This document shows, in pieces, positions 1 to 61,908 of a stretch of 64,000 nucleotides of DNA; position 1 is the first letter of the stretch; every line of letters begins with the position of its first letter. A program made the position numbers and the translations under genes. Where the stretch lies: the NCBI GenBank assembly GCA_965207065.1, contig OZ242260.1, positions 2,641,526-2,705,525 on the forward strand, in the 5' to 3' direction. Origin of the DNA: a bacterium (GTDB lineage Bacteria; UBA8248). The notes beneath the pieces are model-generated. The model saw only the letters and a program-made list of their open reading frames with translations, was not told the DNA's origin and searched no databases.

Positions 1-44
1 CTGACACAATTTTCATGGTCTTTTTCTTGTGAGGGTATTTAGAC

Positions 45-893
45 ATGACGCAAACCGATGGCTCCACGCTCGTTTCGACGGCGTGGCTCTCAGAAAACCT
101 GGAAAATCCGAATCTCCACGTCATCGAGGTTTCCTCGGCCAGTGACGACGCTTCCTACCGCGAAGCCCACGTACCGGGCGCGCACTGGTGGTTCTGGAAA
201 GGGGCGCTCTGGCACGAGACGGACCGCGCGTTCTCCGCGCCCGAGGCGCTGGCCGAGCAATTGGGCGGCATGGGCATAGGGCCGGATGATGAAATCGTCC
301 TGTACGGCGAGCCGGTGCAGTTCGGAACCTATGCGTTCTGGGTGCTGAAGATGGCGGGTTTTTCGAATTTGAAGCTCCTGGACGGCTCGAAGAAAAAGTG
401 GGTTGCCGACGGGATGCCCGTTTCGAGTGAGGCTCCGGTTACTGCGGCCGTCGCCCACTCCGCGCCGGATGGGGGAGAGATATTAAGTGTGGGCAGGGAC
501 GATATTCGCGAGAAGCTGGGTGCGCCGGGCAGGGTGCTGCTCGACGTGCGCTCGCCCGAGGAATACAGCGGCGAGCGGGTGATGCCGCCGCCGGGTTTCG
601 ACCACGGGGCCGAACGCGCCGGACGCATACCGGGGGCCGCGCATCTGTTCTTCCGCGAACTGCTGAACGAGGACGACACCTATAAGAGTACGGATGAACT
701 CGCGCGGATTCTCGGCGATGCGGGCGCCGCGCCCGACGATGAGATAGAACTCGTGCTTTACTGACGCCTCAGCCACCGGGCCAGTCTGGTCTGGTTCGCC
801 ATGCGGTATCTGCTGGGATACGAAGACGTGAAGATTTACGATGGCTCATGGACGGAGTGGGGGAGCATCGTCGGTTTTCCGATTGAAAAATAA
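45..893 (+). CDS. Tandem-domain rhodanese/sulfurtransferase with probable selenocysteine at the active site (282 aa with UGA read-through)
   Basis: The ORF track stops at TGA 762-764, but the frame continues as [42 protein letters not shown] to TAA 891-893. This includes the rhodanese C-terminal signature YDGSWTEW. The TGA falls on the catalytic Cys position (LY-U-RLSHR; compare YCRIGER in SseA/CysA). Confidence 0.9.
776..794 (+). promoter_or_regulatory. Putative bacterial SECIS hairpin
   Basis: CCGGGCCA-GTC-TGGTCTGG forms an 8-bp stem (two G-U pairs) with a G-led apical loop. It starts 11 nt after the UGA and its CAGTCTG apex resembles the E. coli fdhF SECIS apex. Confidence 0.7.
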
Positions 894-10177: not shown

Positions 10178-10411
10178 GCGCAAAAAATCTGGAATGCGCC
10201 AAGGAGCAGATGATGAAGAGCGCGCTCATCACGATTTTTTCGGGATTGGCATCGTCCATCAGAGGCGTGGCGTGGACGGCCCGGCAAGGAGAGGGAGCGA
10301 CTCGACGTGCGTCAAGCAGCGGGGCAAATCGAAATCCCCGTTTGTTTAATGCCCATATCAGGTATTATCATTCCCATTATGAGAAATTTAACGACAACAC
10401 ATCTCTCACGC

Positions 10412-11041
10412 ATGACTCGGCGTAAAGTATCCGGGTCCGACGCCGCATCTACCGGTCTTGCGGATGCCCTGTTCACCACCACGCAGCAACGGCTCCTGGT
10501 GCTGCTGTTCGGCCAGCCCGGGCGGAGCTTTTTCGCGAGCGAGTTGATCCGCTTGACGGGGTCCGGTTCCGGCGCCGTGCAGCGTGAACTGAAGCGCTTC
10601 GCATCCAGCGGTCTGGTGAGCGTTACTTCCATCGGCAGGCAGAAGCATTACCAGGCCAATCCGGAATGTCCGGTGTTCGAGGAGATGAGCGGCATCGTAC
10701 GCAAGACGCTCGCCCTGGCTCAACCTATCCGGCGGGCGCTGGAGCCGCTCGCCGGTCGCGTCGAACTCGCCCTGGTGTACGGGTCGGTCGTAGAGGGGAG
10801 CGATACGGCGGACAGCGACATCGACCTGCTCGTCGTCGCTGACGGCGTGATGCTGGAAGAGCTCTACGAGGCGCTCTCGCCGGTAGAGACCGGCCTTGCC
10901 CGGCGGATCAGCCCCACGCTTTATACGTCCCTTGAATACGATGAACGCAGAGCCGCCGGAAACCCTTTCGTGACGAACGTGCTGGCCGGTGAGCACATCA
11001 TCCTCATCGGAGAGGAAGATGACGCACCCGCAACTCGATAA
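10412..11041 (+). CDS. HTH plus nucleotidyltransferase (MNT) antitoxin-like protein
   Basis: LADALFTTTQQRLL wHTH region; YGSVVEGSDTADSDIDLLVV MNT motif. Confidence 0.82.
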   Translation: MTRRKVSGSDAASTGLADALFTTTQQRLLVLLFGQPGRSFFASELIRLTGSGSGAVQRELKRFASSGLVSVTSIGRQKHYQANPECPVFEEMSGIVRKTLALAQPIRRALEPLAGRVELALVYGSVVEGSDTADSDIDLLVVADGVMLEELYEALSPVETGLARRISPTLYTSLEYDERRAAGNPFVTNVLAGEHIILIGEEDDAPATR

Positions 11042-14115: not shown

Positions 14116-14544
14116 TTACGGCCGCTCCCAGTCGGCGACTCCGCCGGGCGTTACGCGGAAGAGGGGATGGGGCAGGGGAGCATCCACCGCCAGATATTTC
14201 CCGTATCGCTCCGGCGCGCGGGATTCGAGCTTTTTCATCAGATGCCGCCATTCGAAGTCGAGCTGGCCGCTCGTTACATCCAACTGAGCGGTAGTGCGGC
14301 TGCGGCCTATTTTCTCCGAGTCGAAACGATAACCCCGCTTTATGGATTCCGCGTATACGGCTCTCAGGTATTCGGCGATAAGGGTGGCAGGCCTGCCGCC
14401 TGCGCGGAAACGCTCCAGTTGGGGATGGCGGCGGTAGCCCTTCGTCTCGCCCGTCAGAACGGCCTGGGCGAGCAGGGCTTCCCTCCACAGGGCGACCAGC
14501 CCCCTGGCGTCCAGATATTCGGGATGCAGACTCCACAAGCGCAT
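14116..14544 (-). CDS. Pyrimidine-dimer DNA glycosylase / T4 endonuclease V-like protein
   Basis: MRLWSLHPEYLDARGLVALWREALLAQAVL..GYRRHPQL. Confidence 0.8.
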   Translation of the reverse strand: MRLWSLHPEYLDARGLVALWREALLAQAVLTGETKGYRRHPQLERFRAGGRPATLIAEYLRAVYAESIKRGYRFDSEKIGRSRTTAQLDVTSGQLDFEWRHLMKKLESRAPERYGKYLAVDAPLPHPLFRVTPGGVADWERP

Positions 14545-14594
14545 CGTTCATCGCTCCTCGGCGGCGGGAGCGGGTGCTGTTTCCGGCGTGCGGG

Positions 14595-15395
14595 CTATTT
14601 TTCCTTTCGCGGCTTTCCGTTGATGAACGCTTCCCGGACGTAGCGGACGACCGACCAGATATCCTTGTCATTCAGCAGGTGGCCGTAGGATTTCATGAAG
14701 TCGTATTTCTTAAGCTCCGTAACGTCGATGCGGCCGAGATTGATGTTCCAGAAGAGAAACCCGTCGTCGAAGCGCGCCATCTGCTCCTTCAGGTGATAGT
14801 TCATCGGCGGCGGCTGGATGTGGCTGATGAACGGCTTTTCGGGGTCCTGATCCTCCACGGGACGGGTCCCGTCCCCAAGGCCCTTTTTCCCGTGGCACTG
14901 GGAGCAGGCGTCGGCGAAGATTTTCCGGCTCTTCGCATCTTTCGGTTGTTCGCTTTTGCCGAAGCCGCGCACCCATTTGACGAGCTTCCTTATCTGAGCG
15001 TCTTCGAGCGCTTCGCCGAAGGAGGGCATGGCGGTGGGGACGCCGTTAATTACCTTGTGGCCCTTCGTCCGGTTTTTGAGCACGTTCATCTTGCCGAACT
15101 TGACGACGGAGAACATGTAGTCGTCCGTCATGCGCTTCATGTAGGGGCTGATGAACACCTGGGGTCTCGGCCTCACCGTCCGCCAGATTGGCCCCTTGCC
15201 GTCGCCCTTGACCCCGTGGCAGGAGAAGCAGATTTCCCCGTATATCTTCTTGCCCCGCCAGTAGTCCCCGCCGTTTTGTTTCGCCGTCTCGGGATTGGGC
15301 GGGATTCTCCTGGCCGCAAGGGAGGCGGGGGGTGCGATGAGACTCAAAGAGAGAGCAAGAACGATCCATACCCCCTTTTCCCTCATAAACTTCAT
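14595..15395 (-). CDS. Exported diheme c-type cytochrome
   Basis: Signal peptide; CFSCH and CSQCH; two internally similar class I domains with Met ligand candidates (AMPSF, FMKSY). Confidence 0.85.
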   Translation of the reverse strand: MKFMREKGVWIVLALSLSLIAPPASLAARRIPPNPETAKQNGGDYWRGKKIYGEICFSCHGVKGDGKGPIWRTVRPRPQVFISPYMKRMTDDYMFSVVKFGKMNVLKNRTKGHKVINGVPTAMPSFGEALEDAQIRKLVKWVRGFGKSEQPKDAKSRKIFADACSQCHGKKGLGDGTRPVEDQDPEKPFISHIQPPPMNYHLKEQMARFDDGFLFWNINLGRIDVTELKKYDFMKSYGHLLNDKDIWSVVRYVREAFINGKPRKEK

Positions 15396-15499
15396 TTCCT
15401 GTCCTCTTCCAGCGGTCTCGTCGATACGGGTTAGAGGGGCTTCTGAAACGCGGACGCGCGGGATGCCCACCCGATTATGTCGGCCAAGTCTCCGTTATT

Positions 15500-16498
15500 T
15501 TATTTCTTCGCGCAAGGATTTCTGGCGCACGGATTCTTGGCGGCGCACGGGTTTTTCGCTGCGCAGGGGTTCTTCGGCGCGCAGGGGTTGTTCGCACATG
15601 GGTTTTTGGCGGCGCATGGGTTGCTGGAAGCAGGCGGAATTTTTCCCGCGCAGGGATTCTTCGCAGCGGGCGGGCTTTGGGGTGCGCAAGGGTTCTTGGC
15701 GACGGGAGCATCCCCACCAGGAATTTTCGACTTGCCCGGATCGCTTACGCCGGGATTACCGCCACCGGCGACGGATTGCAGCGTTTTCATGAACCCCTTG
15801 CGCTTCGCCTCCCACTCGAGCATGCGCTTGTAGCGCGCGGGCGAGAGCGAAACCACATAAGTTTCCAGGTCCTTGTAGTCCTGAGATTTGGGGTCCATGG
15901 GCGGATTGCCGATGAACGCCGTGGCGCACCAGTCGTTGAACTGCCCGACGCTCACCACATGGTCCGCAGGGCTCAGGCGCGGGAAGTGCTCCGCCGCTCC
16001 GATGAGCGTGGGCACCGGAACGGGATATCTCGCGCCCGTTACGTCCACTACGGTGCCCCGGATGGTGCGTCCCCTGGGGTGGCAGCCCACGCAGCCGATG
16101 CTCCGGAAGATTTTCCTGCCCCGGGCGACGGCGTCCTTCACGCTTACGTCACGCTTCCGGGTGAAGGAATAAGGCGGATTCGTGATGCCCGCCGCCTTGC
16201 TCCCCGCCGGGGCCTTGCCGCCCGGAGAGGGGGTGAATGGTTTGACGATGCGCGGACTCTTCTCCGTCCTGGCGCAGGCGTTCTTCGCCGCGCATGGGTT
16301 TTTGGCCGCGCCCGGATTCTGGGCCGCGCATGGGTTACTCGGTGCGCAGGGATTCTGGGCTGCGCAAGGGTTTCCGGCGCACGGGTTCTTGGACGTGCAA
16401 GGATTCTTGGATTGATTCGCCGCATGGACAGAAATGACGGCCCATATCGAGACGCTCAGGAGCGCGCCGAGGAGGACGAACCTCGATTTTCTCAGCAT
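15500..16498 (-). CDS. Exported monoheme cytochrome c with SoxA/TsdA-like core flanked by Asn-Pro-Cys repeat arms
   Basis: Signal peptide; CVGCH at aa 136-140; LIGAAEHFPR...FNDWC(191)...YKDLETYVVSLS; 6 NPC before and 9 NPC after the core. Confidence 0.78.
   Translation of the reverse strand: MLRKSRFVLLGALLSVSIWAVISVHAANQSKNPCTSKNPCAGNPCAAQNPCAPSNPCAAQNPGAAKNPCAAKNACARTEKSPRIVKPFTPSPGGKAPAGSKAAGITNPPYSFTRKRDVSVKDAVARGRKIFRSIGCVGCHPRGRTIRGTVVDVTGARYPVPVPTLIGAAEHFPRLSPADHVVSVGQFNDWCATAFIGNPPMDPKSQDYKDLETYVVSLSPARYKRMLEWEAKRKGFMKTLQSVAGGGNPGVSDPGKSKIPGGDAPVAKNPCAPQSPPAAKNPCAGKIPPASSNPCAAKNPCANNPCAPKNPCAAKNPCAAKNPCARNPCAKK
15503..15697 (-). repeat. C-terminal (A/P)AKNPC repeat block, 15-18-bp units
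   Basis: 9 NPC plus 2 degenerate units in the last 65 aa. Confidence 0.9.
16271..16408 (-). repeat. N-terminal NPC repeat block
   Basis: 6 NPC plus NPG and NAC variants at aa 31-76. Confidence 0.9.
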
Positions 16499-16612
16499 GG
16501 TCTTCTCTCCCCTGAGGAATGGATTCGATGCGGCGGAAGGAAGCGGAACAGGGTCATGGATTCTGCCTCGTGAGGCGGCTGCTTCCTCCCGATTCTATCA
16601 GAATCGAGGGCG

Positions 16613-17035: not shown

Positions 17036-17180
17036 GCGTTCGCGCTCCGGGGGGTCAAGAAACCTCGCGTTCATCTCCACCCCTGTTTACCTTGCCCGAT
17101 GGGCAGACGCAAAGCTATAGTAGCCGAAACGCGAATCCGGCCATCGGCCGCAGTCCCTTGAATTATCGAGTGAGGGGACC

Positions 17181-17975
17181 ATGAACATAGAAGACGTACG
17201 CGCCATCGCGCGCGGCAGCAGAGTATTCGATCTGGGCGTCGAGCTTTTTCCCGGAATGCCCCACGTGCCGCTGCACGGCCCGTTCGGGTTCTCGATGATC
17301 AGGGAACACGGCGACCACATGTATTCAGGCGGGGCGTGCTCGGCGGTTGAGGCGATTTTCTGCACCGGCCACACCGGCACGCACATCGACGCCCTGGGCC
17401 ACGTCGCAAAGGACATGAAGCTCTACGGCGGCCTGGACGTCGCCGAGCACCAGAGCAAGACGGAAGGCATGAAAGCCCACGGGGTCGAGACCGTAGCGCC
17501 CGTGGTGAGGCGCGGCGTGTTTATCGACGTGGCGGCTTACTTGAAAAAAGACGTTTTAGAGGCGGGCCGGCCCATCACGAAAGAAGAACTCGAAGCCGCC
17601 GCAGCCGCCCAGGGGGTCAAGGTGGAAGAGGGAGACGTCGTCCTGGTGCGAACGGGCCACATGCAAAACTGGCCGGGCCGGAATTATTATTTCCAGAAAG
17701 GCGGCGTGCCCGGAATCGACCTGGATGCCGCGAAATGGCTCTCGGATCAGGGAATCTTCATGGTCGGGAGTGATACCTTCGCGGTCGAGGTGCTGCCCGC
17801 CCCCACGATGCCGGTGCACTGCCACATGCTGGTGGACTGCGGCATCCACCTGCTCGAGGTGTCCGTGCTCGAGGAATTGAGCCAGGCGCGCGCCCATGAG
17901 TTTCTCTTCGTCTGCCTGCCGCTCAAGGTGCGCGGCGGCACGGGCTCGCCCGTCCGTCCCGTGGCCATCCTGTAA
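17181..17975 (+). CDS. Cyclase / kynurenine formamidase-family metallohydrolase
   Basis: HTGTHIDALGH, GDVVLVRTG, VGSDT, H..LVDCGIHLLE, LKVRGGTGSPVRPVA. Confidence 0.9.
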   Translation: MNIEDVRAIARGSRVFDLGVELFPGMPHVPLHGPFGFSMIREHGDHMYSGGACSAVEAIFCTGHTGTHIDALGHVAKDMKLYGGLDVAEHQSKTEGMKAHGVETVAPVVRRGVFIDVAAYLKKDVLEAGRPITKEELEAAAAAQGVKVEEGDVVLVRTGHMQNWPGRNYYFQKGGVPGIDLDAAKWLSDQGIFMVGSDTFAVEVLPAPTMPVHCHMLVDCGIHLLEVSVLEELSQARAHEFLFVCLPLKVRGGTGSPVRPVAIL

Positions 17976-18006
17976 ACCCACCTTTTCTGAATCCGGTGAG
18001 ATAGTC

Positions 18007-19254
18007 ATGCCCCGCGTGTTCGAGGACAGGGCCAAAGCGCTTCTGAATAGCGCGGGCGTGCGCGTCCCCAAGGGACACTCCGTGACGACGCCCTTAGAGG
18101 CGGCGGAGGCGGCGCGCGCCATCGGCGGCCCCGTGATGGTGAAGGCCCTGGTGCCCGCGGGAAAACGCGGCAAGGCGGGGGCGATCCTCGCTGCGGATAC
18201 GCCCGATGAGGCGAAGGAAGCGGCGCGGAAACTCCTGGGCCGTGTGGTGCATCATTTCCCCGTGAAGCGCCTGCTGGTGGAGGAGAGGGTCTCGATCGCG
18301 CAGGAGTGGTATCTCTCGGTCGCCTTCGACAGCGCATCGCGCGGGCCGCTCGTCATGTTCAGCACCGAGGGCGGCGTGGAGATCGAGTCGCTTTTAGAAG
18401 AAAACCCGGACGCTCTTAAACGGCTGGAAGTCGATATTCTGGAGGGACTCACCGAGGAGCGGTGCGTCTCCTTCCTGCGCGCGATGGGCGTGCACGGGGA
18501 GGGCCTCTACCGCGCGGCCATGGCGCTCGAGGCCTGCTACGCGCTTTTTCGCCGGAGCGAGGCGCGGGTACTGGAGGTGAATCCACTCGTCCTGACTGAT
18601 ACGGACGAAGTGATCGCCGCCGCGTGCGTTCTCGATCTGGACGCGGACGCCCTGTTCCGCCACGCAGACCTCAAAGAACTGCTCGATGATGACTCGGACG
18701 GCGGCTGGCGTCCGCCGACGCCCGTGGAGGCGAGGGTCGCGGAGATCGACGCCATGGTCCCTCCGTTCAATACGGCGCGCTTCACGGAAATCGATGGCGG
18801 GGAGATCGCCCTCATGTGGAGCGGGGGCGGGGGCGGCCTGTATTTGCTGGACACGATGGAGCGCCTGGGCGGCAAGCCCGCGACGGCGTTCGACATCACT
18901 CCGGGCCCGCTTGAGGAGAAGTATTTCGAGATCACCAAAGAGATTCTCGCGATGCCGAACGTGAAGGGCGCGCTCGCGGGCAGCAACATCACGAGTTTCT
19001 CGCGCGTTCAGCTCAAGGTCCGCGCCATCGCCCGCGCGGTCGAGGAGACGGGGGTCGACCTCGCGAAATTTCCCTTCATCGTGCGCTTCGCGGGCGCGGG
19101 CGGGGAGGAGGCCAGGGAGATCGCCGCAAGCTGTCCGGGCCTTCAGTATCTTGGGGATGAGGTGACGCTCGAAGAAGCCGCCGAGCGTATCATCGCCCAG
19201 GTCGAGGCTGTGAAGCGCGGGGAGTCGTGGACGAGTATAGGAGGCGCGCCTTGA
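18007..19254 (+). CDS. Succinyl-CoA synthetase beta-like ATP-grasp subunit (divergent)
   Basis: VMVKALVPAGKRGKAG, LLVEE, EVNPLV, LDADALFRH. Confidence 0.82.
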   Translation: MPRVFEDRAKALLNSAGVRVPKGHSVTTPLEAAEAARAIGGPVMVKALVPAGKRGKAGAILAADTPDEAKEAARKLLGRVVHHFPVKRLLVEERVSIAQEWYLSVAFDSASRGPLVMFSTEGGVEIESLLEENPDALKRLEVDILEGLTEERCVSFLRAMGVHGEGLYRAAMALEACYALFRRSEARVLEVNPLVLTDTDEVIAAACVLDLDADALFRHADLKELLDDDSDGGWRPPTPVEARVAEIDAMVPPFNTARFTEIDGGEIALMWSGGGGGLYLLDTMERLGGKPATAFDITPGPLEEKYFEITKEILAMPNVKGALAGSNITSFSRVQLKVRAIARAVEETGVDLAKFPFIVRFAGAGGEEAREIAASCPGLQYLGDEVTLEEAAERIIAQVEAVKRGESWTSIGGAP

Positions 19255-20168
19255 GCATTCTGGTTGACGAGACAACGCGCGTCGTCGTGGCGGGCATCAC
19301 CGGCTGGCAGGCGCGCGCCCACACCGGCTTCATGCGGGCGTACGGCACCCGCGTGGTGGCGGGCGTAGTGCCCGGCCGCGCGGGCGAGGATTGCGACGGC
19401 GTGCCCGTGTATGACTCGTTCGCCTCCGCTCTGGGTGAACACCCGGCGGACGCGGCCGTCCTGTTCGTGCCGGCCGCCGCAGCGGCGGAATCGGCCATCG
19501 AAGCGGCGGTGGCGGGCGTCGGGATGATTCTCGTGTGCGCCGAGGGCGTCCCGCAGCACGACGTGGCGCGGATGATCGCCCATGCACGGCGCGCAGGGGT
19601 GCGGCTCGTGGGTCCCAACAGCCAGGGGGTCATCAGTCCCGGACGCGCGAAGATGGGCGGCACGGGCGGCGATCTGCCCGTCACGAACCTCCTGTTCCGG
19701 CGCGGGCCGGTGGGCGTGCTGAGCAGAAGCGGGGGCATGGGCAGCGAGACCTGCTGGCTCCTGAGCCGCGAGGGAATCGGCCAGAGCACCTACGTGAGCG
19801 TGGGGGGAGACGCCATGGTGGGCGCGCCCTTCTCTGAACTCTTGCCCATGTTCCAAGCCGATCCGGATACGGAGTGCGTCGTCCTGTTCGGCGAGCCGGG
19901 CTCGTGCGCCGAAGAGGACGCGGCGCGCCTGATGGGCGAGGGGGGATTCACCAAGCCTGTGGTCGCCTTCATCGCGGGGATGGTGAACGAGTCCGCTCCC
20001 CAAGGTGTGAGCTTCGGCCACGCGGCGGCCATCATCGAGCGCGGCGAAGGCTCTCCCGCACGGAAAAAGGCGCTGTTGAGAGAGGCGGGGGCCGCTGTGG
20101 TGGAGGATATGCGCGAGATTCCAGACGCCGTGCGCGATGCCTTGGGCGCTGGATTTTTCGCTCCTTAG
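19251..20168 (+). CDS. Succinyl-CoA synthetase alpha-like CoA-binding subunit
   Basis: GITG, GPNSQG, SRSGGM, GGD, FGEPG, SFGHAAAI (phospho-His). TTG start after AGGAGG overlaps the beta stop. Confidence 0.85.
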   Translation: MSILVDETTRVVVAGITGWQARAHTGFMRAYGTRVVAGVVPGRAGEDCDGVPVYDSFASALGEHPADAAVLFVPAAAAAESAIEAAVAGVGMILVCAEGVPQHDVARMIAHARRAGVRLVGPNSQGVISPGRAKMGGTGGDLPVTNLLFRRGPVGVLSRSGGMGSETCWLLSREGIGQSTYVSVGGDAMVGAPFSELLPMFQADPDTECVVLFGEPGSCAEEDAARLMGEGGFTKPVVAFIAGMVNESAPQGVSFGHAAAIIERGEGSPARKKALLREAGAAVVEDMREIPDAVRDALGAGFFAP

Positions 20169-20268
20169 CTGATAATTCTATCCGGTATTCCCTGAAAAAT
20201 CCGAAACTGGTGGTTTCGTATTTCATCGTCCCAAGAAAATATTGTGTAAAGACAAGGAGAAATTGCAA

Positions 20269-21948
20269 ATGCCGAAAATGACAGGCGCCCAGGTCATGGC
20301 CGAGATGCTCAAGGGCTATGGCGTGACTCACACTTTTCTGGTTCCCGCTGTTCTCAGGCGCTCGATGGCCGAGATGGAAGAGCGCACGAACATCGCCCGC
20401 ATCCAGACGCACGGCGAGAAATCCGCCGCCTACATGGCGGACGGCTACGCCCGCGCGGGCAAGAAGCCGGGCGTCTGCATGGCGCAGGTCATCGGCGCGC
20501 TGAACCTGGCGGCGGGCCTGCGGGACGCCTATCTGGCGAAGGCTCCCGTCCTGGCCTTCACGGGCGGGCGCGTGCCCGAGACGAAGTTCCGCAAGGTCTA
20601 CCAGGAGGTGGACGACGTTCCCGCCTTCGAGCCGGTGACGAAGTTCAACGCCACGGTGGACGACGTCTCGCGCTTCCCGGACATGCTCCGGCAAGCCTTC
20701 CGCGTGGCCACCTCGGGATGCCCGGGGCCGGTGCACCTGCAATTCGCAGGCAACGAGGGCCAGCTCGACATCGGAGAGGCCGAGATGGAGGTGGTCATCG
20801 AAGAAGATTTCAAGGAACTCCCTCCATATAGGCCCGAACCTGAAATGGCGCGCGTGAAAAAAGCGGTCGAGTTGCTGGAAAAAGCGGAGCGCCCCGTCAT
20901 CGTCGCTGGCGGCGGGGTTCGCTCATCGGGAGCGTCGAAAGAACTCATCGCCCTGGCGGAGAAGCTGAACATACCGGTGGCGACGTCGTTGAACGGCAAG
21001 GACAACATTCCGGGCAACCATCGGCTTTCCGTCGGCGTAGTGGGCACCTATTCGAGAAAGAGCGCGAACCGCGTCGTGAACGGAGCCGACCTGGTCTTTT
21101 TCGTCGGCACCGAGACGGGCGGCATGACGACGCACTTCTGGGCCGTGCCACCCATCGGCACGCCCGCCATCCAGCTCGACATCGAACCAGAGGCGCTTGC
21201 GCGGAACTATCCCCTGCAAGCCGCGGTTCTGGGCGACGCCAGGGTGAGCCTCCAGAAGATGACCGATGCGACGAGTGGAGATTCCGCCGCCTCGCGCGCG
21301 GGCTGGGTCGAGCGAGCACAGGGCTTCGTGCAGGGATGGCGCGATGAATTCAGCGAATATCTCGCATCGGACGCAGCACCCATGCGTCCCGAGCGCATCT
21401 GCCAGGAGTTGACGGATTCGCTGCCTTCGGACTGCGTCGTGCTGGGCGATACGGGCCATTCGGGCATGTGGATGGGCGGCATGTACGACCTCTCGCACCC
21501 CGAGCAGAGCTACATACGGAGCGCGGGCCACCTGGGCTGGGCCTTCTCGGCGGGTCTGGGGGCGAAGTGCGCGGTGCCCGACAGGCCGGTGCTCGCCTTC
21601 AACGGCGATTCGGGCTTCTGGTATCACCTGTCTGAAATCGAGACCGCCGTGCGCTGGAATATCAACGCGGTGACGCTGGTGAACAACAACGCCTCTGGGA
21701 ATCAATCGAAGCGCGGCTTCGATCGCGCCTACGGCGGCGAGCAGACCGAGCAGGCTCATGAACTCTGGAAGCTGAACGCGGTGAATTTCGCCGAGATAGC
21801 CGAATCCATGGGCGCATTGGGCATCCGGGTGGAAAAACCGGGTGAGCTGAAAAGCGCGCTCGACCAGGCCTTCAGCGCGAACCGGCCCGTCGTAATCGAC
21901 TGCGTGAGCGACATCGAGGCCATGGCGCCGTTGGCTGTTACGGAGTAG
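20269..21948 (+). CDS. Thiamine-pyrophosphate-binding protein (acetolactate synthase large-subunit family)
   Basis: HGEKSAAYMADGYARA, GGGV, GDSGF...NN TPP motif. Confidence 0.92.
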   Translation: MPKMTGAQVMAEMLKGYGVTHTFLVPAVLRRSMAEMEERTNIARIQTHGEKSAAYMADGYARAGKKPGVCMAQVIGALNLAAGLRDAYLAKAPVLAFTGGRVPETKFRKVYQEVDDVPAFEPVTKFNATVDDVSRFPDMLRQAFRVATSGCPGPVHLQFAGNEGQLDIGEAEMEVVIEEDFKELPPYRPEPEMARVKKAVELLEKAERPVIVAGGGVRSSGASKELIALAEKLNIPVATSLNGKDNIPGNHRLSVGVVGTYSRKSANRVVNGADLVFFVGTETGGMTTHFWAVPPIGTPAIQLDIEPEALARNYPLQAAVLGDARVSLQKMTDATSGDSAASRAGWVERAQGFVQGWRDEFSEYLASDAAPMRPERICQELTDSLPSDCVVLGDTGHSGMWMGGMYDLSHPEQSYIRSAGHLGWAFSAGLGAKCAVPDRPVLAFNGDSGFWYHLSEIETAVRWNINAVTLVNNNASGNQSKRGFDRAYGGEQTEQAHELWKLNAVNFAEIAESMGALGIRVEKPGELKSALDQAFSANRPVVIDCVSDIEAMAPLAVTE

Positions 21949-37020: not shown

Positions 37021-37131
37021 CTGAAATGCTCTTGCCGGGGACGTATAGGCTGGGTATGTTGGCGGTATCCGAGGAGGAGTTATTGATTAGTAGAAATTCG
37101 GGCAATAAAACTTCTTGATTAAGAGGGTAGG

Positions 37132-38946
37132 ATGACTGAACTGAACTTCAAGGGGAAGGAATTCGTTTACAACCACCATTTATCCGTGCCGTTCCATCCG
37201 CTTGAAATGCACTCGGATAAGGGAATTGGTGAAGCAAGTTTAGACGGTAACCTGATCATTCATGGAGACAATCTGAAAGCGCTGAAAGCATTAATGCCAC
37301 TCTATGCTGGCAAGGTGGACTGTATCTTCATCGACCCACCTTACAACACCGGCAACGAAAGCTGGTGCTACAACGACAATGTGAACGCACCAATGATCAA
37401 AGAATGGTTGGAAGCGAACCCGGTTGGGATCGAGGATGGTCTCCGTCATGACAAGTGGTGTGCGATGATGTGGCCGAGGCTACGCTTGTTGCATGATTTG
37501 CTTGCCGATACGGGGAGTTTTTGGGCAACTATTGATTACATAGAGGTTAACCGGTTCAAGCAAATTTTGGATGAAATATTTGGCGAGAATAACTATATAG
37601 GTATGATTTCTTGGGAAAAAACCTATACACCAAAGAGTAACAGCAGAGTAATAAGTGCCGATACAGACTATATATTTTGTTATGCTAAAAATAAATCTGT
37701 ATTCGAGTCGGATGGTTGGAATTTGATAACTAAGGATAGTGAACAACTTGGAAGATATTCCAATCCAGATAATGATCCCAAAGGACCTTGGCGGACTTTT
37801 CCAATAGATGTTCGCACCGAAGATGCCGGGAAACGTGAGAAATATCGATATCAAGTTGAATTGCCGTCGGGTCGTACGGTACGACCTGCCGCTGGGCGTC
37901 ATTGGTCTCTCCCTGAAGATGTGTTCAATGCTGAGAGAACAGCCGGAAGGATCTACTTTGGCATGAAAAATGATGCAATACCAACAGTCAAAGCATATCT
38001 TTCTGACGGTCGGGATAAAATCATAGCGAGAACGTGGTGGCCATACAGTTCTGTCGGAGGTAATCAGGATGCAAAGAAGCAAATTTTGAATATTCTTGGC
38101 AGTGATTGCGATTTTCTTACACCTAAACCTACAAGCCTGATTCGTAGAATATTAGATATTGCTACTCATCGACACTCGATAGTTCTAGATTCGTTTTCTG
38201 GTTCGGGATCGACAGCACATGCTGTTCTCGAAGCGAATCGGGACGATGACGGAGAACGCCGCTTTATTCTTGTTGAGATGGAGGACTACGCGAACCGGAT
38301 AACTGCCGAGCGAGTCCGTCGTGTTATCAATGGCTATGACTTCACTGGCACTCTGCGTACGGAATTGATGCGGGAAAAAATCACTTGGTCCAAGCTGAAG
38401 AACTCCCGCAAACTGACGGAGTCGGTAGAGGTAATCGAGAATCTGCATGGCCACGAGTACGACCGAATTAAGAAGGAAGTCAAGAACGGCGAATTGATTG
38501 TCACTGGCGAAGAGTCGATAGCGGAATGCGTCGAGGGGCTTGGCGGTTCCTTCACCTATTGCACCCTTGGCGATCCTGTGGAACTCGACAAGCTGCTTAG
38601 CGGAGAAACTTTACCACCGTATGAGGGAATTGGCGCGGCGCTCTTCCACATGGCGACCAATTACGCAATTGACGCCGAGATCGTGCGCAAGGCGGAATAC
38701 TATCTTGGCGAGGCCGACGGCCAACATGTATGGCTGATCTACAAATCCGATTTGGATTGGCTGAAATCGCCTGAAGCAGCGCTGACATTGGACCGCGCTA
38801 GGACATTCGCATCGGCGGACCCAGAGAAGCGCCATCTTGTTTTCGCTCCGGTCCGCTATGTCAGTCAGAAGATGCTGGAGGAACAGAACCTTCCCGTCGA
38901 GTTTGTGCCGCTACCCTTCGCGCTCTACCGCATTGACCGGGGTTAA
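37132..38946 (+). CDS. mod: Type III restriction-modification DNA methyltransferase (Mod)
   Basis: IFIDPPYNTG, TPKP..LIRRIL, LDSFSGSGSTAHAV, FILVE. Confidence 0.93.
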   Translation: MTELNFKGKEFVYNHHLSVPFHPLEMHSDKGIGEASLDGNLIIHGDNLKALKALMPLYAGKVDCIFIDPPYNTGNESWCYNDNVNAPMIKEWLEANPVGIEDGLRHDKWCAMMWPRLRLLHDLLADTGSFWATIDYIEVNRFKQILDEIFGENNYIGMISWEKTYTPKSNSRVISADTDYIFCYAKNKSVFESDGWNLITKDSEQLGRYSNPDNDPKGPWRTFPIDVRTEDAGKREKYRYQVELPSGRTVRPAAGRHWSLPEDVFNAERTAGRIYFGMKNDAIPTVKAYLSDGRDKIIARTWWPYSSVGGNQDAKKQILNILGSDCDFLTPKPTSLIRRILDIATHRHSIVLDSFSGSGSTAHAVLEANRDDDGERRFILVEMEDYANRITAERVRRVINGYDFTGTLRTELMREKITWSKLKNSRKLTESVEVIENLHGHEYDRIKKEVKNGELIVTGEESIAECVEGLGGSFTYCTLGDPVELDKLLSGETLPPYEGIGAALFHMATNYAIDAEIVRKAEYYLGEADGQHVWLIYKSDLDWLKSPEAALTLDRARTFASADPEKRHLVFAPVRYVSQKMLEEQNLPVEFVPLPFALYRIDRG

Positions 38947-38954
38947 AGCGCGAC

Positions 38955-41561
38955 ATGTTCCGCCAACTGGAATATCAGGATCGAGTTCTTGCGACGCTCG
39001 ATACTTATATTGACCAACTTAGGGCTAGGAAACTGGAAGCCGATGAGATTGCGGAACTGGCGGCAAGCAAGCCGCATTTGGCCGTGCCGATCCCCGATTT
39101 CACATATGAGGCATGGGAAGCTTTAAAAGCAGAAGGCAAGTTGCCTACCTCGCGTGCTGCGATCCCGTTTTCGCCACGTGAAGACGGGTGTGGTCGTCCG
39201 GTTCCGAACGTGGTGCTTAAAGTACCGACAGGCGGCGGCAAGACTTGGTTAGCCGTCTCCGGACTCTCACACATCATGGGCCGCTATCTCGAAAGGAACA
39301 CGGGCTTTGTGTTGTGGGTCGTGCCGAACGAAGCGATATACAGCCAAACACTTAAGCATTTGAAAGACCGACAGCATCCTTATCGACAAATGCTCGACCG
39401 CGCGGCAGCCGGGCGTGTTCGAGTCATGGAGAAAATTGACCGCCTCGATGCGCGGGACGTGGAAACTAACCTCTGTGTCATGCTACTGATGCTTCAATCG
39501 GCAAACCGGAAGTCTCAGGAATCACTAAAGATGTTTCAGGATCGGGGAGACGTGCACGGCTTCTTTCCGCCCGAAGGCGAACAGCAGGCGCACAGGGAAG
39601 TGCTGGAGAGGACGCAAAACCTCGCTGCTTATAGCGGTATCTTCCAGATGGTGAAAGATTCACTCGGCAACGCTTTGCGGATCATTCGCCCTGTTATGGT
39701 GCTGGATGAGGGACATCGGGCGATCTCCGATCTGGCATTTAAGACGCTCTATGGGTTTAACCCATGTTTCGTACTGGAACTGACGGCGACCCCGCAAGAC
39801 GTGCAGCCGCGCGGCGGTCAGAACCCGAGGGAGGGGCGCTATGCCAACCTGCTTGTTGAGGTGTCAGGTCGGGAACTGGACCGCGAGGGCATGATTAAGA
39901 TGCCGCTTAATCTTGAGCCCAGGCAGGGTACCGATTGGCGGTCAACCCTCAACGCTGCGCTCGCGAAGTTGGACACACTCCATAACAAAGCAAAAAATTT
40001 ACGTGCCAATACCAATCGTTTTATTCGCCCGATCATGCTGGTTCAGGTCGAACGCACCGGAGCAGATCAGAGGGAAAGCGGTCATATTCACGCAGAGGAT
40101 GTTAGCGACTGTCTCTTGGCAGCCGGATTCGATGACGCGGAGATTGCCATCAAAACGGCTGAGCAGAATGACCTGAAACAACCGGAGAACCAGAACCTTC
40201 TTTCGCCTACCAACCGTGTGAGAGCGATCATCACGAAGCAGGCGCTCCAGGAAGGCTGGGACTGCCCGTTTGCCTACGTGCTTTGCGCATTGGCAGCAAA
40301 CACGAACCTTAATGCCATGACCCAACTTGTGGGTCGTATCCTTCGCCAGCCAGGCGCAATCAAGACTGGCGTCGAAGCGCTTGACGAGTGCCATATCATC
40401 ACACACCACGCCGAAACCGCTTCTGTAGTGGAAGCGATCAAGGCTGGGTTGGAACAAGACGGACTTGGCGATCTCGTGCTTCAGGTCTCTCAGGATGATA
40501 CAAGTGAACCAAAGAGCGAGTCGCGAAAGATCAAACGACGCTCCGACTTCGAGTACACGGAAATCTACCTACCAAAAGCTATGGTCGTGGAGAATGGCGA
40601 GTCGCGGGAACTAGATTACGAGACCGACGTTTTGTCCCGTATCGACTGGCGCGATTTCAACCCTAAGGAGATCGCGGCTCGCATTCCCGAGAACGCACAG
40701 GCGGTTGAGAACCAATTGCAACGCATCGGGTTGGCCGAGGATGGGGATGAGCCCTTTGTCGGCGAAATTGTTTCGAGAAACAGTGAAGTTTTGACATTCG
40801 ATCCGGTACATGCGGTGCGTATGATACTAGATATCATACAGAACCCCTTTGTGGGGCACGAAATCGTAGATCGGCTTCTTGCAGAGCTTTCTAGCCGCGG
40901 ATTCGACAACAAGAAATTAGGACAACTTGACGGGCTAATCGTTGAAGAACTACGTAAAAGATTGAATATCGAGCGTGACGCACGTGCCGAAGCTCTGTTC
41001 AAAGACAGTGTGACGACAGGGCACATCCAGTTCCGACTGCGTTTGGACGGCAAAAACTGGCGAATGCCCTTCCAGATCGAAACGACCGAATCGGACACGG
41101 CACGTCAGCTTGTGAGCAAGACAGGTGGTCCTTTGGAGAAGAGCCTGTTCGCACCAATCTATGAGAACGAGTTGAACAGCGACGAGCGAGAAGTAGCTGT
41201 CTATCTCGACAGCGAGGAGACATTGACCTGGTGGCACCGTAACGTCGCACGCAAGCAGTATGGAATACAGGGCTGGAAAAAGGGGATAATCTATCCTGAC
41301 TTCATCTTTGCTGGGAAAATGGTGGATGGTAAATCAAGATTGTTTGTTCTGGAAACAAAAGGCGACTATCTCGATAATTTGGATACAAAGTACAAACGCA
41401 AATTGCTAGATCTTATGTCCGAGAATTTTTCATGGGACAATACGATACAAGCTGGAGAACTGGCACTCGTTCAAGAAAATGGCGAAACTGTTCAGTGCGC
41501 ATTGGTGTTGATGAGCGAATGGAGAACGGAATTGCCGGAACTATTAAATCAAACTAAATGA
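38955..41561 (+). CDS. res: Type III restriction helicase/endonuclease (Res)
   Basis: VPTGGGKT, DEGH, LTATP, ALQEGWDCP, C-terminal PDF..LETKG nuclease motif; 8 bp after mod. Confidence 0.92.
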   Translation: MFRQLEYQDRVLATLDTYIDQLRARKLEADEIAELAASKPHLAVPIPDFTYEAWEALKAEGKLPTSRAAIPFSPREDGCGRPVPNVVLKVPTGGGKTWLAVSGLSHIMGRYLERNTGFVLWVVPNEAIYSQTLKHLKDRQHPYRQMLDRAAAGRVRVMEKIDRLDARDVETNLCVMLLMLQSANRKSQESLKMFQDRGDVHGFFPPEGEQQAHREVLERTQNLAAYSGIFQMVKDSLGNALRIIRPVMVLDEGHRAISDLAFKTLYGFNPCFVLELTATPQDVQPRGGQNPREGRYANLLVEVSGRELDREGMIKMPLNLEPRQGTDWRSTLNAALAKLDTLHNKAKNLRANTNRFIRPIMLVQVERTGADQRESGHIHAEDVSDCLLAAGFDDAEIAIKTAEQNDLKQPENQNLLSPTNRVRAIITKQALQEGWDCPFAYVLCALAANTNLNAMTQLVGRILRQPGAIKTGVEALDECHIITHHAETASVVEAIKAGLEQDGLGDLVLQVSQDDTSEPKSESRKIKRRSDFEYTEIYLPKAMVVENGESRELDYETDVLSRIDWRDFNPKEIAARIPENAQAVENQLQRIGLAEDGDEPFVGEIVSRNSEVLTFDPVHAVRMILDIIQNPFVGHEIVDRLLAELSSRGFDNKKLGQLDGLIVEELRKRLNIERDARAEALFKDSVTTGHIQFRLRLDGKNWRMPFQIETTESDTARQLVSKTGGPLEKSLFAPIYENELNSDEREVAVYLDSEETLTWWHRNVARKQYGIQGWKKGIIYPDFIFAGKMVDGKSRLFVLETKGDYLDNLDTKYKRKLLDLMSENFSWDNTIQAGELALVQENGETVQCALVLMSEWRTELPELLNQTK

Positions 41562-42073: not shown

Positions 42074-42172
42074 CACATTTCCTCACGCCCAAAAGCGCTG
42101 TTAGCATAGCGGCGTCCTGCCCCTTGCGGTATGGTGGCCCCCAACCATCCACTTACATATAGGGAACGCGAC

Positions 42173-43186
42173 ATGAAAGTAGGGCTCTTCATCACCAACC
42201 AGCAGCACCTGGAAACCGACATGGTCAGCGCCCTGGACGAGCAGTACGCCATGGTGCGCCTCGCGCGCGACAAGGGCTGGGATTCGCTCTTCACCGGGCA
42301 GCACTACCTGAACGAGGGCGACAACAAGCAGCTCCAGATCGTGCCGTTCCTCGCGCGCCTGCAGGCCGAAGCGGGCGAGATGACGCTCGGGCTCGGCATC
42401 CTGCTCATCAACCTGCACAACCCGGTCTACGTGGCCGAGACGGTGGCGACGATGGACGTGCTCTGCCGGGGGAACTTCGTGTTCGGCATCGGGCTGGGCT
42501 ACCGCAAGGCGGAGTTCGACGCCTTCCAGGTGCCGAAGGGCCAGCGCGTGCGCCGCTTCGAGGAGTGTCTCGAACTCGTGAAGCGCCTCTGGACGGAAGA
42601 GGAGGTGACCTGGGAGGATGAGATCTGCAAGCTCGACGGCGTGCGCATGAACATCCGCCCCGTGCAGAAGCCATATCCACCGATATGGGTGGCGGCCAAT
42701 AATGACAAGGCCATCGAGCGCGCCGCGCGCATCGGCGACAACTGGTTCATCAACCCGCATTCGACCACGGCGACCATCAAGCGGCAGATGACGCTCTACC
42801 GCGCGGAACTGGAGCGGTGCGGCAAGCCGTTCCCGGCGGATTTCCCCTGCATGAAGGAGATTTTCTGCAGCCGCGACAGGAAGACCGCCCTCGAGATGGC
42901 GGGGCCGTATCTGTTCGGCAAGTACCAGGATTACGCCAAGTGGGGGCAGGACGACGCCATGCCCGATGATGAGAGCTTCGATCAGGAATTCGACGATTTG
43001 CTGAAAGATCGCTTCATCATCGGCTCGCCCGAGGAGTGCTACGAGCAGCTTCGCCCCTACTGGGAGGAGGTGGGCATGAGCCATCTCATCATCCGTACGC
43101 ACTGGGCGGGAATGCCGCTCTCCACGGCGCTCCACAGCATGCGGATGATCTCGGACGAACTTATCCCGGAGCTCAGGAAGATTTGA
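42173..43186 (+). CDS. LLM-class flavin-dependent oxidoreductase
   Basis: WDSLFTGQHY, HNPVYVAETVATMD, GIGLGYR, PPIWVAA. Confidence 0.9.
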   Translation: MKVGLFITNQQHLETDMVSALDEQYAMVRLARDKGWDSLFTGQHYLNEGDNKQLQIVPFLARLQAEAGEMTLGLGILLINLHNPVYVAETVATMDVLCRGNFVFGIGLGYRKAEFDAFQVPKGQRVRRFEECLELVKRLWTEEEVTWEDEICKLDGVRMNIRPVQKPYPPIWVAANNDKAIERAARIGDNWFINPHSTTATIKRQMTLYRAELERCGKPFPADFPCMKEIFCSRDRKTALEMAGPYLFGKYQDYAKWGQDDAMPDDESFDQEFDDLLKDRFIIGSPEECYEQLRPYWEEVGMSHLIIRTHWAGMPLSTALHSMRMISDELIPELRKI

Positions 43187-43270
43187 GGGATTCCGTGCAC
43201 GCCGGGCGGAATCATGGTATAGTGGAAGCATAGAAAAACAGCGCATGACCGCAAAAAGTGGGGGATCGAA

Positions 43271-43792
43271 ATGTCTGAAAAAAAGATGATATCCTTCGTT
43301 CTCAACGGAGAGCCCGTCGAGGTGATGGTTCCCGTAAACCGCTATCTGGTGGACCTCATCCGCGAGGATTTGGACATGATGGGCACCAAGCGCGCCTGCG
43401 ATCAGGGCGCGTGCGGGTCCTGCTCGATCATCATGGATGGGGATCTCATCAGTGCCTGCCTCGTCCTGGCGGTGCGCGCTGACGGCGCGAACGTCGAGAC
43501 CATAGAAGGCCTCGGCGGCCTCGAGGACTTGCATCCCTTACAAGCCGCATTCGCTTCCTACGGCGCCACGCAGTGCGGCTATTGCACGCCGGGGATGATC
43601 ATCTCGGCCAAAAAGCTGCTCGATGAAAACCCCGACCCCTCAGAGTCCGAGATTCAGCACTGGCTCACCGGAAACCTCTGCCGCTGCACGGGGTATCGCC
43701 AGATCATCTCGGCGATTCGCGCCGTGGCCGAGGGCAGAACCGAACCCGAATCCCCCATCACGGTTCCCACGGTGAAGGCCTACGACGACTGA
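43271..43792 (+). CDS. [2Fe-2S]-binding protein (CoxS/XdhC small-subunit family)
   Basis: GTKRACDQGACGSC, QCGYCTPG, GNLCRCTGY. Confidence 0.93.
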   Translation: MSEKKMISFVLNGEPVEVMVPVNRYLVDLIREDLDMMGTKRACDQGACGSCSIIMDGDLISACLVLAVRADGANVETIEGLGGLEDLHPLQAAFASYGATQCGYCTPGMIISAKKLLDENPDPSESEIQHWLTGNLCRCTGYRQIISAIRAVAEGRTEPESPITVPTVKAYDD

Positions 43793-56540: not shown

Positions 56541-57953
56541 GTGCGCCTTCTGAAACAAGCCACGAGAACGCGCGGATACGATTACACGAAAGGCTCGGTC
56601 GGCTGGGCCATCACGCGCCTCTCGGTTCCGATATGCGGCGAGCGCATCCTCCGCAATCTCGACGGCATTTTTGAGATTTACTGGCTCGGCCGGATGGGGG
56701 CCGAATTCCTGGCGGCGGCGTCTCTGGGTTTCATCACCCTGTTGTTCATCCGTTCGGCCCCTTTCGGAATCAGGATCGCAGGCCAGGCGCTCGTGGCCCA
56801 GCGCGTGGGCGCGGGCGATGGAGAGGGCGCCTCGGTCATGGCGGGGCAGACCATCTTCCTCGTCGGCGTCTTCAGTCTCATCGCCACGTTCCTGGGTCTA
56901 TGGTTCGCTCCCCTCCTGATGGACTTGATGACGCGTGACCCCGCGCTGGCCGCCCTGGGCGTCGTCTACATCCGCGCGGGCTTCGCCGTGCTGCTCGCCG
57001 CCGAGGCGATGTTCGTGGTCGGCCAGATATTGCGGGGAACCGGCGAGCCGGGCATCACCATTGCGGGCGTCGTGGCCTCCACCGTTTTGACGCTCATCTT
57101 CATCCCCCTCTTGATGTTCGGATGGGGGCCGATTCCCGCTTTGGGGATAGCGGGCAGCTTTCTCGGCATCGGCGTGGGGCGGCTGGGCGGATTCGCAACC
57201 ATGCTGACCTTCATCGTGAAGGGAAAATCGAGGCTCAGGCTGAGGTGGGCCGATTTGCGCCCGCGCGCGTCCGAGATATCCCGCGTCGCGCGTCTCGCCT
57301 GGCCCGCCATGGTGCAGAACCTCCTCGAGCGAAGCGCGCTCCTGCTCATGGTGCGGATGCTTTCTCCCTTCGGGGCGAGTGCGCTGGCCGCGTGGAGCAT
57401 CGGCAACCGCGTGACGATGATCGCCCGGATGCCGAGCTTCGGTCTGCAAAGCTCGGTGCGCACGCTGGTGGGCCAGAACATGGGCGCGGAGAAGCCCGAG
57501 CGCGTGACGCGCACGGTATGGCTTGCAGTCGCCGCGCTTGTGATGCTGATGGCGGCGGCGAGCATATTTTTATTCGCCTGGGCGCAGGAGGTCGTCTCGT
57601 TTTTCGGCATGGCGGGGAACGACACGGCCGTCATGGCGCTCAGAATCCTGTGCGCGGGCCTGCTCATGGAGTCCATCCGCCGGGTGATGGCGGGCGCGTT
57701 CCAGGGAGCCTCGCGCTCGAAGCCGCCCATGCTGGTGGAGGGCGTCGTTCGCTGGGGTGTTCAGCTTCCCGCCGCCTATCTGCTCTCGTTCTGGTTTGCC
57801 GTGGGAGCGGGCGGCGTCTGGTTAGCGGTGAGCGGGGGCCAGATCCTGAGCGGTGCGCTCCTCCTCGTATGGTTTTTCCGGTGGTCACGGAGCGGGGATA
57901 TCCGGGGTTTTATGGGCGTTCGGGGTTTGAAATCCGCGATCAAATCCACTTAA
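56541..57953 (+). CDS. MATE-family efflux transporter
   Basis: VAQRVGAGD, LRGTGEP, VGQNMGAEKPER, FQGAS. Confidence 0.9.
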   Translation: MRLLKQATRTRGYDYTKGSVGWAITRLSVPICGERILRNLDGIFEIYWLGRMGAEFLAAASLGFITLLFIRSAPFGIRIAGQALVAQRVGAGDGEGASVMAGQTIFLVGVFSLIATFLGLWFAPLLMDLMTRDPALAALGVVYIRAGFAVLLAAEAMFVVGQILRGTGEPGITIAGVVASTVLTLIFIPLLMFGWGPIPALGIAGSFLGIGVGRLGGFATMLTFIVKGKSRLRLRWADLRPRASEISRVARLAWPAMVQNLLERSALLLMVRMLSPFGASALAAWSIGNRVTMIARMPSFGLQSSVRTLVGQNMGAEKPERVTRTVWLAVAALVMLMAAASIFLFAWAQEVVSFFGMAGNDTAVMALRILCAGLLMESIRRVMAGAFQGASRSKPPMLVEGVVRWGVQLPAAYLLSFWFAVGAGGVWLAVSGGQILSGALLLVWFFRWSRSGDIRGFMGVRGLKSAIKST

Positions 57954-58064
57954 GCTGTCTGCGCCGCTTCGGGTGCTCTCTTGTATTTTCAATGAGAGAT
58001 GATGTGATTTGTGGAGCGCGCGATTCGGGAAGCGAAGACGCTCCCCATGAGGAGTTTGTGGACG

Positions 58065-58454
58065 ATGAACAGGGCGTTGGCGGCGGGGCTTTTTCTCATA
58101 GCGGGGTTTGGGTTGATCGTGACGTTGACGAAAAGGCCCGAGCCGCCGGGACGGGTTCCCGCAACCGAGGATATGGCGCAGATCAAGAAGGGGAAATCGC
58201 TGTTCTCGCGCAACTGCATGCGCTGCCACGGGCCCGAAGCCAAGGGTTCGCGAATCGGGCCGCCGCTGGTGCACAAGGTTTACGAACCCTCCCACCACGG
58301 GGACGCCGCGTTCTTCATGGCCGTTTCGCGCGGGGTGAGGAGCCACCACTGGAAGTTCGGCGACATGCAGCCCGTGCCGGGTGTGAAACCCGAGGATGTG
58401 GCCCTGATCGTGCAATACGTGCGCTGGCTGCAGCGGAAGGCCGGTATTTTTTAG
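58065..58454 (+). CDS. Monoheme c-type cytochrome
   Basis: N-terminal anchor, CMRCH, HHGDAAF..GVRSHHWKFGDM; start uncertain (58011, 58047 or 58065). Confidence 0.85.
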   Translation: MNRALAAGLFLIAGFGLIVTLTKRPEPPGRVPATEDMAQIKKGKSLFSRNCMRCHGPEAKGSRIGPPLVHKVYEPSHHGDAAFFMAVSRGVRSHHWKFGDMQPVPGVKPEDVALIVQYVRWLQRKAGIF

Positions 58455-58472
58455 GCGAGGGAGCAAGACCTG

Positions 58473-61896: not shown

Positions 61897-61908
61897 TTTG
61901 TCTTTCCG

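Follow-up and report, generated by a model that had tools for sequence, protein, structure and literature searches.

A rhodanese gene with an in-frame UGA at its catalytic codon in a sponge-associated bacterial clade is a probable selenoprotein gene

Does the TGA triplet inside a rhodanese gene of a bacterial contig end the protein, or does it encode selenocysteine (Sec)? The gene lies at 45-893 of a stretch of 64,000 nucleotides (NCBI GenBank assembly GCA_965207065.1, contig OZ242260.1, positions 2,641,526 to 2,705,525 of the forward strand), which was analysed as a whole and is called the window here. An earlier note, written from the letters of the window, had proposed that the TGA at 762-764 takes the place of the active-site cysteine (Cys), that the hairpin following it corresponds to a selenocysteine insertion sequence (SECIS) of the Escherichia coli type, and that callers of open reading frames (ORFs) hide the complete product. 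Based on the comparisons described below, we consider it very probable that this is a genuine selenoprotein gene, in which UGA would encode Sec at the catalytic residue 240. The coordinates of all features are collected in Table 1.

In order to place the protein in a family, we searched with the 282-residue read-through product, in which Cys was written at residue 240. Two stretches of the product matched the Pfam family Rhodanese (PF00581) with E = 1e-30, and a phmmer search against the PDB aligned it end to end with 1UAR from Thermus thermophilus (residues 7-282 of both proteins, E = 4e-61), and also with 3AAX/3HWI (E = 2e-56) and SseA 3HZU (E = 7e-47) from Mycobacterium tuberculosis. Codon 240 falls on the catalytic Cys of 1UAR (YCRIAERSS) and of 3AAX/3HWI (YCRIGERSS), and the loop is aligned by phmmer without any gap, which bears out the proposed position of the TGA in the active-site Cys slot. 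The 42 sense codons between the TGA and the TAA at 891-893 were said to complete the domain with YDGSWTEW, and both the read-through translation and the PDB alignments agree with this. We therefore assign the predicted product to the tandem-domain rhodanese / thiosulfate-3-mercaptopyruvate sulfurtransferase family (COG2897, SseA-CysA type, two PF00581 domains). The two-domain architecture and the loop length of 1UAR, 3AAX/3HWI and 3HZU are the same as those of the window protein, and Arg is kept at loop positions +1 and +5. The YDGSWTEWG motif is also conserved, reading TEYG in the M. tuberculosis chains. On the contrary, the T. thermophilus and M. tuberculosis rhodaneses contain Cys and the loop CRI[AG]ER, where the window protein has U-R-L-S-H-R (U, Sec), and their identity to the window protein is about 45-50% by eye.

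The nearest Cys-containing relatives form a large subfamily marked by the loop CRLSHRA[TS]. It occurs in marine Chloroflexota, Nitrospinota/Nitrospinaceae, Rhodospirillales and other groups, and its members are 57-64% identical to the window protein in the best matches and down to 54% identical among the related loci. The loop of this subfamily is identical to that of the window protein except for Sec/Cys and for Ser/Thr at +7; TGC or TGT stands at its catalytic codon, and the nucleotides of the hairpin region are variable. The loop U-R-L-S-H-R had been described in the earlier note as unlike the TST (CRKGVT) and MPST (CGSGVT) loops. The motif itself stands, but it is not exotic, since it is the Sec version of the CRLSHRA[TS] subfamily and lies near the CRI[AG]ER loop of 1UAR/CysA. 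There is no cysteine anywhere in the window protein, and the Cys homologues mostly contain 1-5 additional cysteines. Because 19 of the 20 Sec forms likewise lack any cysteine, Sec240 would be the only chalcogen nucleophile of the enzyme, and the N-terminal domain of the cysteine-free protein would be inactive. The loss of cysteine in the Sec forms (the window gene and the related loci L001-L019 and L032) may avoid intramolecular Se-S trapping.

If the TGA were a real stop, the gene would be a pseudogene or carry a recent nonsense mutation, and only a 239-residue fragment without the catalytic loop would be made. Consistent with such a fragment, the product is given as 239 aa by ORF callers and at NCBI, and no sel genes were found within the window. 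However, TGA was found at codon 240 in all 22 related genomes (GTDB species genomes), whose proteins are 76-93% identical to that of the window, so that the stop sits at the same codon over a protein divergence of up to 24%, and it is always TGA, never TAA or TAG. Moreover, a fragment ending at Tyr239 would lose the entire active-site loop. The 22 genomes are labelled Nitrospinota, Nitrospinaceae or 'bacterium', many of them are derived from sponges, and the peptide after the TGA is nearly unchanged among them. When we calculated the ratio of nonsynonymous to synonymous differences (pN/pS) on a codon alignment of 20 Sec genes, which also served for the synonymous-site tests below, the mean upstream of the TGA was 0.25. 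After the UGA, the value was 0.079 overall (codons 241-282) and 0.084 beyond the hairpin, with a pS of 0.35-0.47 (0.41-0.47 for the part upstream of the TGA and that beyond the hairpin), and synonymous changes were present as early as codons 241-243. Since pN/pS is low there while synonymous changes are many, the frame 3' of the TGA is translated and selected, and we regard a pseudogene as highly improbable.

The more distant homologues (n = 17; Nitrospinaceae, Chloroflexota, Rhodospirillales and Phaeobacter) have TGC or TGT at this codon and the loop CRLSHRAT. The question raised in the earlier note, whether homologues carry Cys or TGA, is thus answered by TGA in the 22 related genomes and TGC/TGT in the 17 outgroup homologues. 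Close relatives with TGC or TGT and no conserved hairpin, which the note had named as evidence against Sec, were not seen; TGA is present in 22/22, and the hairpin is identical at the nucleotide level. Two irregular copies were observed among the loci. The match in L013 (CBDCMA010000008.1, 3001-4172) is 1172 nt long, in place of 846, and an apparently complete copy with the TGA and the hairpin is preceded by a fragment for residues ~46-72. Part of the gene may have been duplicated, sequence may have been inserted, or the long-read assembly may be at fault. L035 and L039 belong to one metagenome-assembled genome (COS4_bin_23), in which the gene is divided over two contig ends with an aberrant overlap (…SPEGSRGER), an assembly break within the gene and not two copies.

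A sequencing or assembly error, by which TGA would stand for TGC or TGT, is favoured by nothing more than the prior chance of a single-base error. TGA is read in assemblies made independently from short and from long reads of many sponges. Logan contigs from the DNA of the source sample and of a second sponge metagenome, as well as from two sponge metatranscriptomes (covering 759-886 and 738-886), show no alternative letter at 762-764 or in the rest of 762-803. These contigs differ from the window only at third codon positions further downstream of 803, and many sponge metagenome runs contain the gene sequence. The reads had been proposed as a way to expose such an error through TGC or TGT; the letters of the window recur in the DNA runs and in the RNA contigs. 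Because both the RNA and the DNA contigs are unchanged at 762-803, transcription of the gene or of its close relatives is established, and both an assembly error and editing of the UGA are excluded. The chance of a misread TGC or TGT is accordingly negligible.

An in-frame TGA by itself would also be expected if UGA were reassigned throughout the genome (code 4 or 25), in which case the gene would be an ordinary ORF in another code. However, TGA terminates 13 of the 33 long ORFs of the window that have a high G+C content at third codon positions (GC3), and we conclude from these that the organism uses UGA as a normal stop. A scan for other selenoprotein genes in the window gave 32 in-frame TGAs with coding-like GC3 on both sides, and all but that at 762 were off-frame artefacts or reflected adjacent genes, so that there was no other convincing case of a read TGA. 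We give a reassigned code practically no chance.

The mRNA downstream of the UGA folds into a hairpin of -12.6 kcal/mol by RNAfold, with the apex CAGUCUG at 782-788. Its first and second pairs lie 10 and 11 nt downstream of the UGA, in agreement with the hairpin that the earlier note had placed 11 nt after the UGA with this apex. Counted from the U of the UGA as 1, the stem starts at 14-15 and the loop GUC occupies positions 23-25, which puts G at 23 and U at 24. In the E. coli fdhF SECIS, 11 nt separate the UGA from the upper stem-loop, whose loop contains G23/U24 (PMC8659212). The element of the window therefore resembles it in the start of the stem, 10-11 nt after the UGA, and in the G and U at 23 and 24 of the apical loop. 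It differs in that there is no bulged U17, the 9-bp stem is perfect and includes two G-U pairs, and the loop is 3 nt long. The lower stem is not conserved.

We then examined whether the hairpin is constrained at the nucleotide level. Within the invariant block around it, 8 of 8 degenerate codons do not vary in the 20 genes, compared with 107 variable codons of 127 elsewhere (Fisher p = 1.4e-6). The G and U of the loop are supplied by an invariant, rare Ser codon, AGT, at a residue where the Cys forms have Thr (ACN). These observations show that an RNA-level constraint acts on the hairpin. When comparable hairpins (a stem of 7 bp or more, and a loop starting at nt 20-27 with GU near its beginning) were counted after every TGA trinucleotide on both strands of the window, they followed 7 of 1914, and only 2 of these had at least 9 bp. 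The hairpin described here comes after the single TGA that is aligned with a catalytic Cys. The folding energy of the whole 76-nt stretch is not unusual compared with shuffled sequences (z = -0.17). Since this is so, and since several Cys forms also fold there, we argue for the element from its position and conservation, not from its energy. Finally, variant hairpins were sought with amino-acid-constrained scans, in which the pattern Y-U-R-L-S-H-R-A-x-L-[VA]-W-F-A-M was fixed and third positions were free. The scans recovered 21 genomes, which had already been found, and 3 JGI/GenBank metagenome contigs, and the hairpin was identical in all.

Here, we need to consider several results that weigh against the assignment as a selenoprotein gene. 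First, selA, selB and selD were not found in the 64-kb window, a part of the 4.48-Mb contig, or in 45 related loci when six-frame ORFs were searched by phmmer with E. coli SelA, SelB and SelD, and no tRNA-Sec was found in the window by ARAGORN or Rfam, which reported no tRNA or RNA family there. Second, there is no covariation support for the pairing of the hairpin, with no variant hairpin among the 21 genomes and the 3 metagenome contigs. Third, some Cys-form genes of Chloroflexota fold a hairpin at the same place from the coding sequence of R-A-T-L-A-W, and therefore the hairpin alone is not diagnostic. Fourth, the neighbouring genes, including a two-component system, a D-serine dehydratase-like protein, an amidase and a ferredoxin, do not indicate sulfur or selenium metabolism. 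Finally, the gene is tied to the selenoprotein-rich genomes described in the next paragraph by an indirect route, through a shared metagenome, the sole Nitrospinae bin of that study and a similar G+C content.

In BSepDB, three genomes named 'Nitrospinota' at NCBI and placed in the GTDB phylum UBA8248 are among the ten most selenoprotein-rich bacteria, with 48-54 selenoprotein genes, and a genome is counted there only if it has at least two genes of the Sec pathway (PMC13326102). One entry under UBA8248 is 'Nitrospinae bacterium bin107' with 48 selenoprotein genes (PMC13326102), which is the only Nitrospinae bin of the Aplysina aerophoba metagenome (Slaby et al. 2017) and has a size of 4.9 Mb and a G+C content of 59.5%. 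The G+C content of the window is 60.9%, and in MKWU, an Illumina assembly of the same A. aerophoba metagenome, the gene lies on a 420-kb contig, where its TGA and hairpin are unchanged. High numbers of selenoproteins are known for the clade, and the gene probably belongs with bin107 and UBA8248. A search of the genome collection with the SelA motif GDKLLGGPQAG gave at least 120 matches in random taxa, and this clade was absent among the matches listed.

A few bacteria have been reported to insert Cys at UGA in a SECIS-dependent manner, so that the hairpin might aid the recoding of the UGA with a residue other than Sec. Cys could be inserted by a tRNA-Sec-like tRNA with a SelB-like factor, or Trp or Cys by near-cognate read-through, and the product would be an ordinary Cys-rhodanese or inactive. 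On the contrary, the hairpin has the canonical features for SelB binding, with G23/U24 at the E. coli spacing, and 48-54 selenoproteins have been published for genomes of the phylum. A TGC codon would give Cys at no cost, and Trp as the catalytic residue would abolish activity, which does not fit with the purifying selection on the gene. We consider insertion of another residue very improbable, and insertion of Sec at residue 240 is the reading that we follow below.

Hairpins were also observed in the Cys-form loci L030, L031 and L033 (Chloroflexota) and in L021, L022 and L036, with energies of -8.7 to -14.1 kcal/mol between nt +13 and +36 after the TGC. Their GC-rich coding sequence for R-A-T-L-A-W is self-complementary, and the loop is CGC, not GUC. 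It seems that the SECIS may have been built from a hairpin inherent in the coding of H-R-A-T-L-A/V-W, and the switch from Cys to Sec may thereby have been eased.

In a neighbour-joining tree, all Sec forms fall into one clade nested among the Cys forms of the CRLSHR subfamily. The genomes with Sec forms keep the gene order amidase -> rhodanese <- 2-hydroxyacid dehydrogenase <- ferredoxin <- DUF1932, and the part rhodanese <- dehydrogenase <- ferredoxin is shared by the Cys forms of pelagic Nitrospinaceae. Based on the nested clade and the common neighbours, the Cys forms of pelagic Nitrospinaceae are recognised as positional orthologues of the Sec forms, and the change from Cys to Sec took place once, with the chromosomal locus kept, in a clade of sponge-associated bacteria labelled Nitrospinota by NCBI. 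The Sec lineage is narrow, as the amino-acid-constrained scans found it within one sponge-associated clade.

How the UGA would be read can be described after the E. coli model. At the UGA, the ribosome would meet the downstream hairpin presenting G23 and U24; the hairpin would recruit SelB.GTP.Sec-tRNA(Sec), Sec would be inserted, and translation would continue to the TAA. Cys rhodaneses work by a double-displacement mechanism, and by analogy the selenolate in the cationic loop U-R-L-S-H-R would accept a sulfane sulfur from thiosulfate, a persulfide or another anionic donor. The resulting Se-S intermediate would pass the sulfur on to a thiol or cyanide acceptor. Arg241, His244 and Arg245 of the loop may form the cradle that holds the selenolate. 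Compared with Cys, Sec would have a lower pKa, be more nucleophilic and be a better leaving group, so that both half-reactions would be faster, and it would resist irreversible over-oxidation. The enzyme might instead be a dedicated carrier of selenium or sulfane sulfur, not a general sulfurtransferase, in an organism with about 50 selenoproteins. In that case, the lone selenolate would carry selenium in perselenide form, or sulfur in selenosulfide form, for delivery to selenophosphate synthetase or another acceptor. We regard this role as unlikely. The gene context gives no support to the Se/S exchange suggested in the earlier note.

To our knowledge, no natural Sec-rhodanese has been characterised biochemically. 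A natural Sec rhodanese with positional Cys orthologues would be a good test of the role of selenium in sulfane-sulfur transfer, and the E. coli-like SECIS should permit direct expression in E. coli.

Enzymes of this kind have been predicted before. Three sequences of a Sec-containing 'rhodanese-related sulfurtransferase' (COG2897) were predicted from Sargasso Sea data and presented together with a figure of the SECIS (Zhang, Fomenko, Gladyshev 2005, PMC1088965), and the Sec COG2897 rhodanese was found again in the Global Ocean Sampling (GOS) metagenomes (PMC2398784). The Sargasso/GOS form belongs to the same COG2897 and PF00581 tandem family as the window protein, with Sec for the catalytic Cys and a SECIS directly downstream, and its widespread Cys homologues and marine bacterial source are also as here. 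Five Sec 'rhodanese-like' forms are listed in a 2026 review (PMC13188914). Form 4 of that review, the Sargasso form, shares the COG and the Pfam family with the window protein but has the motif UxxG, while the window protein has U-R-L-S (UxxS) and thus falls into a different loop subfamily, as judged by the published motif. Form 3 of the review corresponds to NF041203 'rhodanese_LYCAU', a rhodanese (seleno)protein family with a single domain of 126 residues and a CxU motif. Membership of the window protein in NF041203 was rejected, with a score of 37.1 bits against a cut-off of 115 and a weak match (E = 2e-9) limited to the last 50 residues of the C-terminus. When the GTDB species genomes were scanned for Sec forms with the loop of CysA/1UAR (Y-U-R-I-[GA]-E-R-S-S-H), the 3 matches were all random non-rhodanese sequence. 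The novelty that the earlier note had implied for a Sec rhodanese is thus lowered, as such sulfurtransferases have been published since 2005 (PMC1088965) and again in 2026 (PMC13188914). The genes described here are a new, well-supported lineage of the Sec-containing COG2897 rhodaneses that have been predicted since 2005, and not a new category.

The gene is mis-called as a 239-residue protein at NCBI and in every ORF-based catalogue, as had been expected from the way ORF callers treat the TGA. A protein search found 22 clusters of truncated forms of 237-239 residues, 74-100% identical to the 239-aa product, and the orthologue MCY4382958.1 (239 aa) is named 'rhodanese-like domain-containing protein' at NCBI. 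Among the best 120 matches listed, the full-length proteins were at most 64% identical to the truncated product, with Cys wherever the sequence was read. An exact look-up of the window's own 239-aa product gave no record, and none of the NCBIfam selenoprotein models matched the protein. The N-terminus MTQTD... agrees with those of the orthologues.

Table 1. Positions in the window of the candidate selenoprotein gene and of the elements recognised within and around it
Feature	Position	Strand	Description and basis
Candidate rhodanese gene	45-893	+	ATG at 45 to TAA at 891-893; 282 residues with the TGA read through
Likely ribosome-binding site GAGGG	31..35	+	Sequence inspection; 9 nt 5' of the start codon
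Codons 1-239	45..761	+	N-terminal rhodanese domain, linker and most of the catalytic C-terminal domain; equals the 239-aa ORF-caller product
In-frame UGA, codon 240	762..764	+	Aligned with the catalytic Cys; TGA across the clade; same in DNA and RNA contigs
Codons 241-282	765..890	+	Rest of the active-site loop (R-L-S-H-R-A-S) and of the C-terminal domain (YDGSWTEWG)
Predicted true stop TAA	891..893	+	Same end point in all orthologues
Predicted SECIS hairpin	775..795	+	9-bp stem 775-783/787-795, loop G784 U785 C786; RNAfold and identity in all Sec forms
Nucleotide block around the hairpin	771..803 (codons 243-253)	+	774-803 (codons 244-253) identical in 20 genes; codon 243 differs in one genome
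Possible 2-bp stem extension	G772-C799, C773-G798	+	In RNAfold structures

Several other regions of the window were noted. A type III restriction-modification pair lies at 37123-41561 (+), consisting of an N6_N4 DNA methylase (37123-38946) and a ResIII helicase/endonuclease (38937-41561), and its GC3 of 0.50-0.58, against 0.75-0.90 for most genes of the window, suggests that it is probably a horizontally acquired island. Four long ORFs of 350-688 aa at 14382-16573 (+), 42101-43537 (-), 56939-59005 (+) and 61585-62859 (+) have a GC3 of only 0.48-0.61 and did not match any Pfam family at E <= 1e-5, and they may also be foreign or related to defence. A nucleotidyltransferase of the Polbeta family is encoded at 10217-11041 (+). 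In the related locus L048, a PSK_trans_fac/PIN pair resembling a toxin-antitoxin system and another nucleotidyltransferase are found at 19670-20720, about 9 kb from the rhodanese gene. Finally, the four successive genes at 17124-21948 (+), a possible operon, encode a putative cyclase, beta-like (ATP-grasp) and alpha-like subunits of the succinyl-CoA-ligase type and a thiamine-pyrophosphate enzyme, and this gene run resembles a heterotrophic carbon metabolism, unlike that of the nitrite-oxidising Nitrospina.

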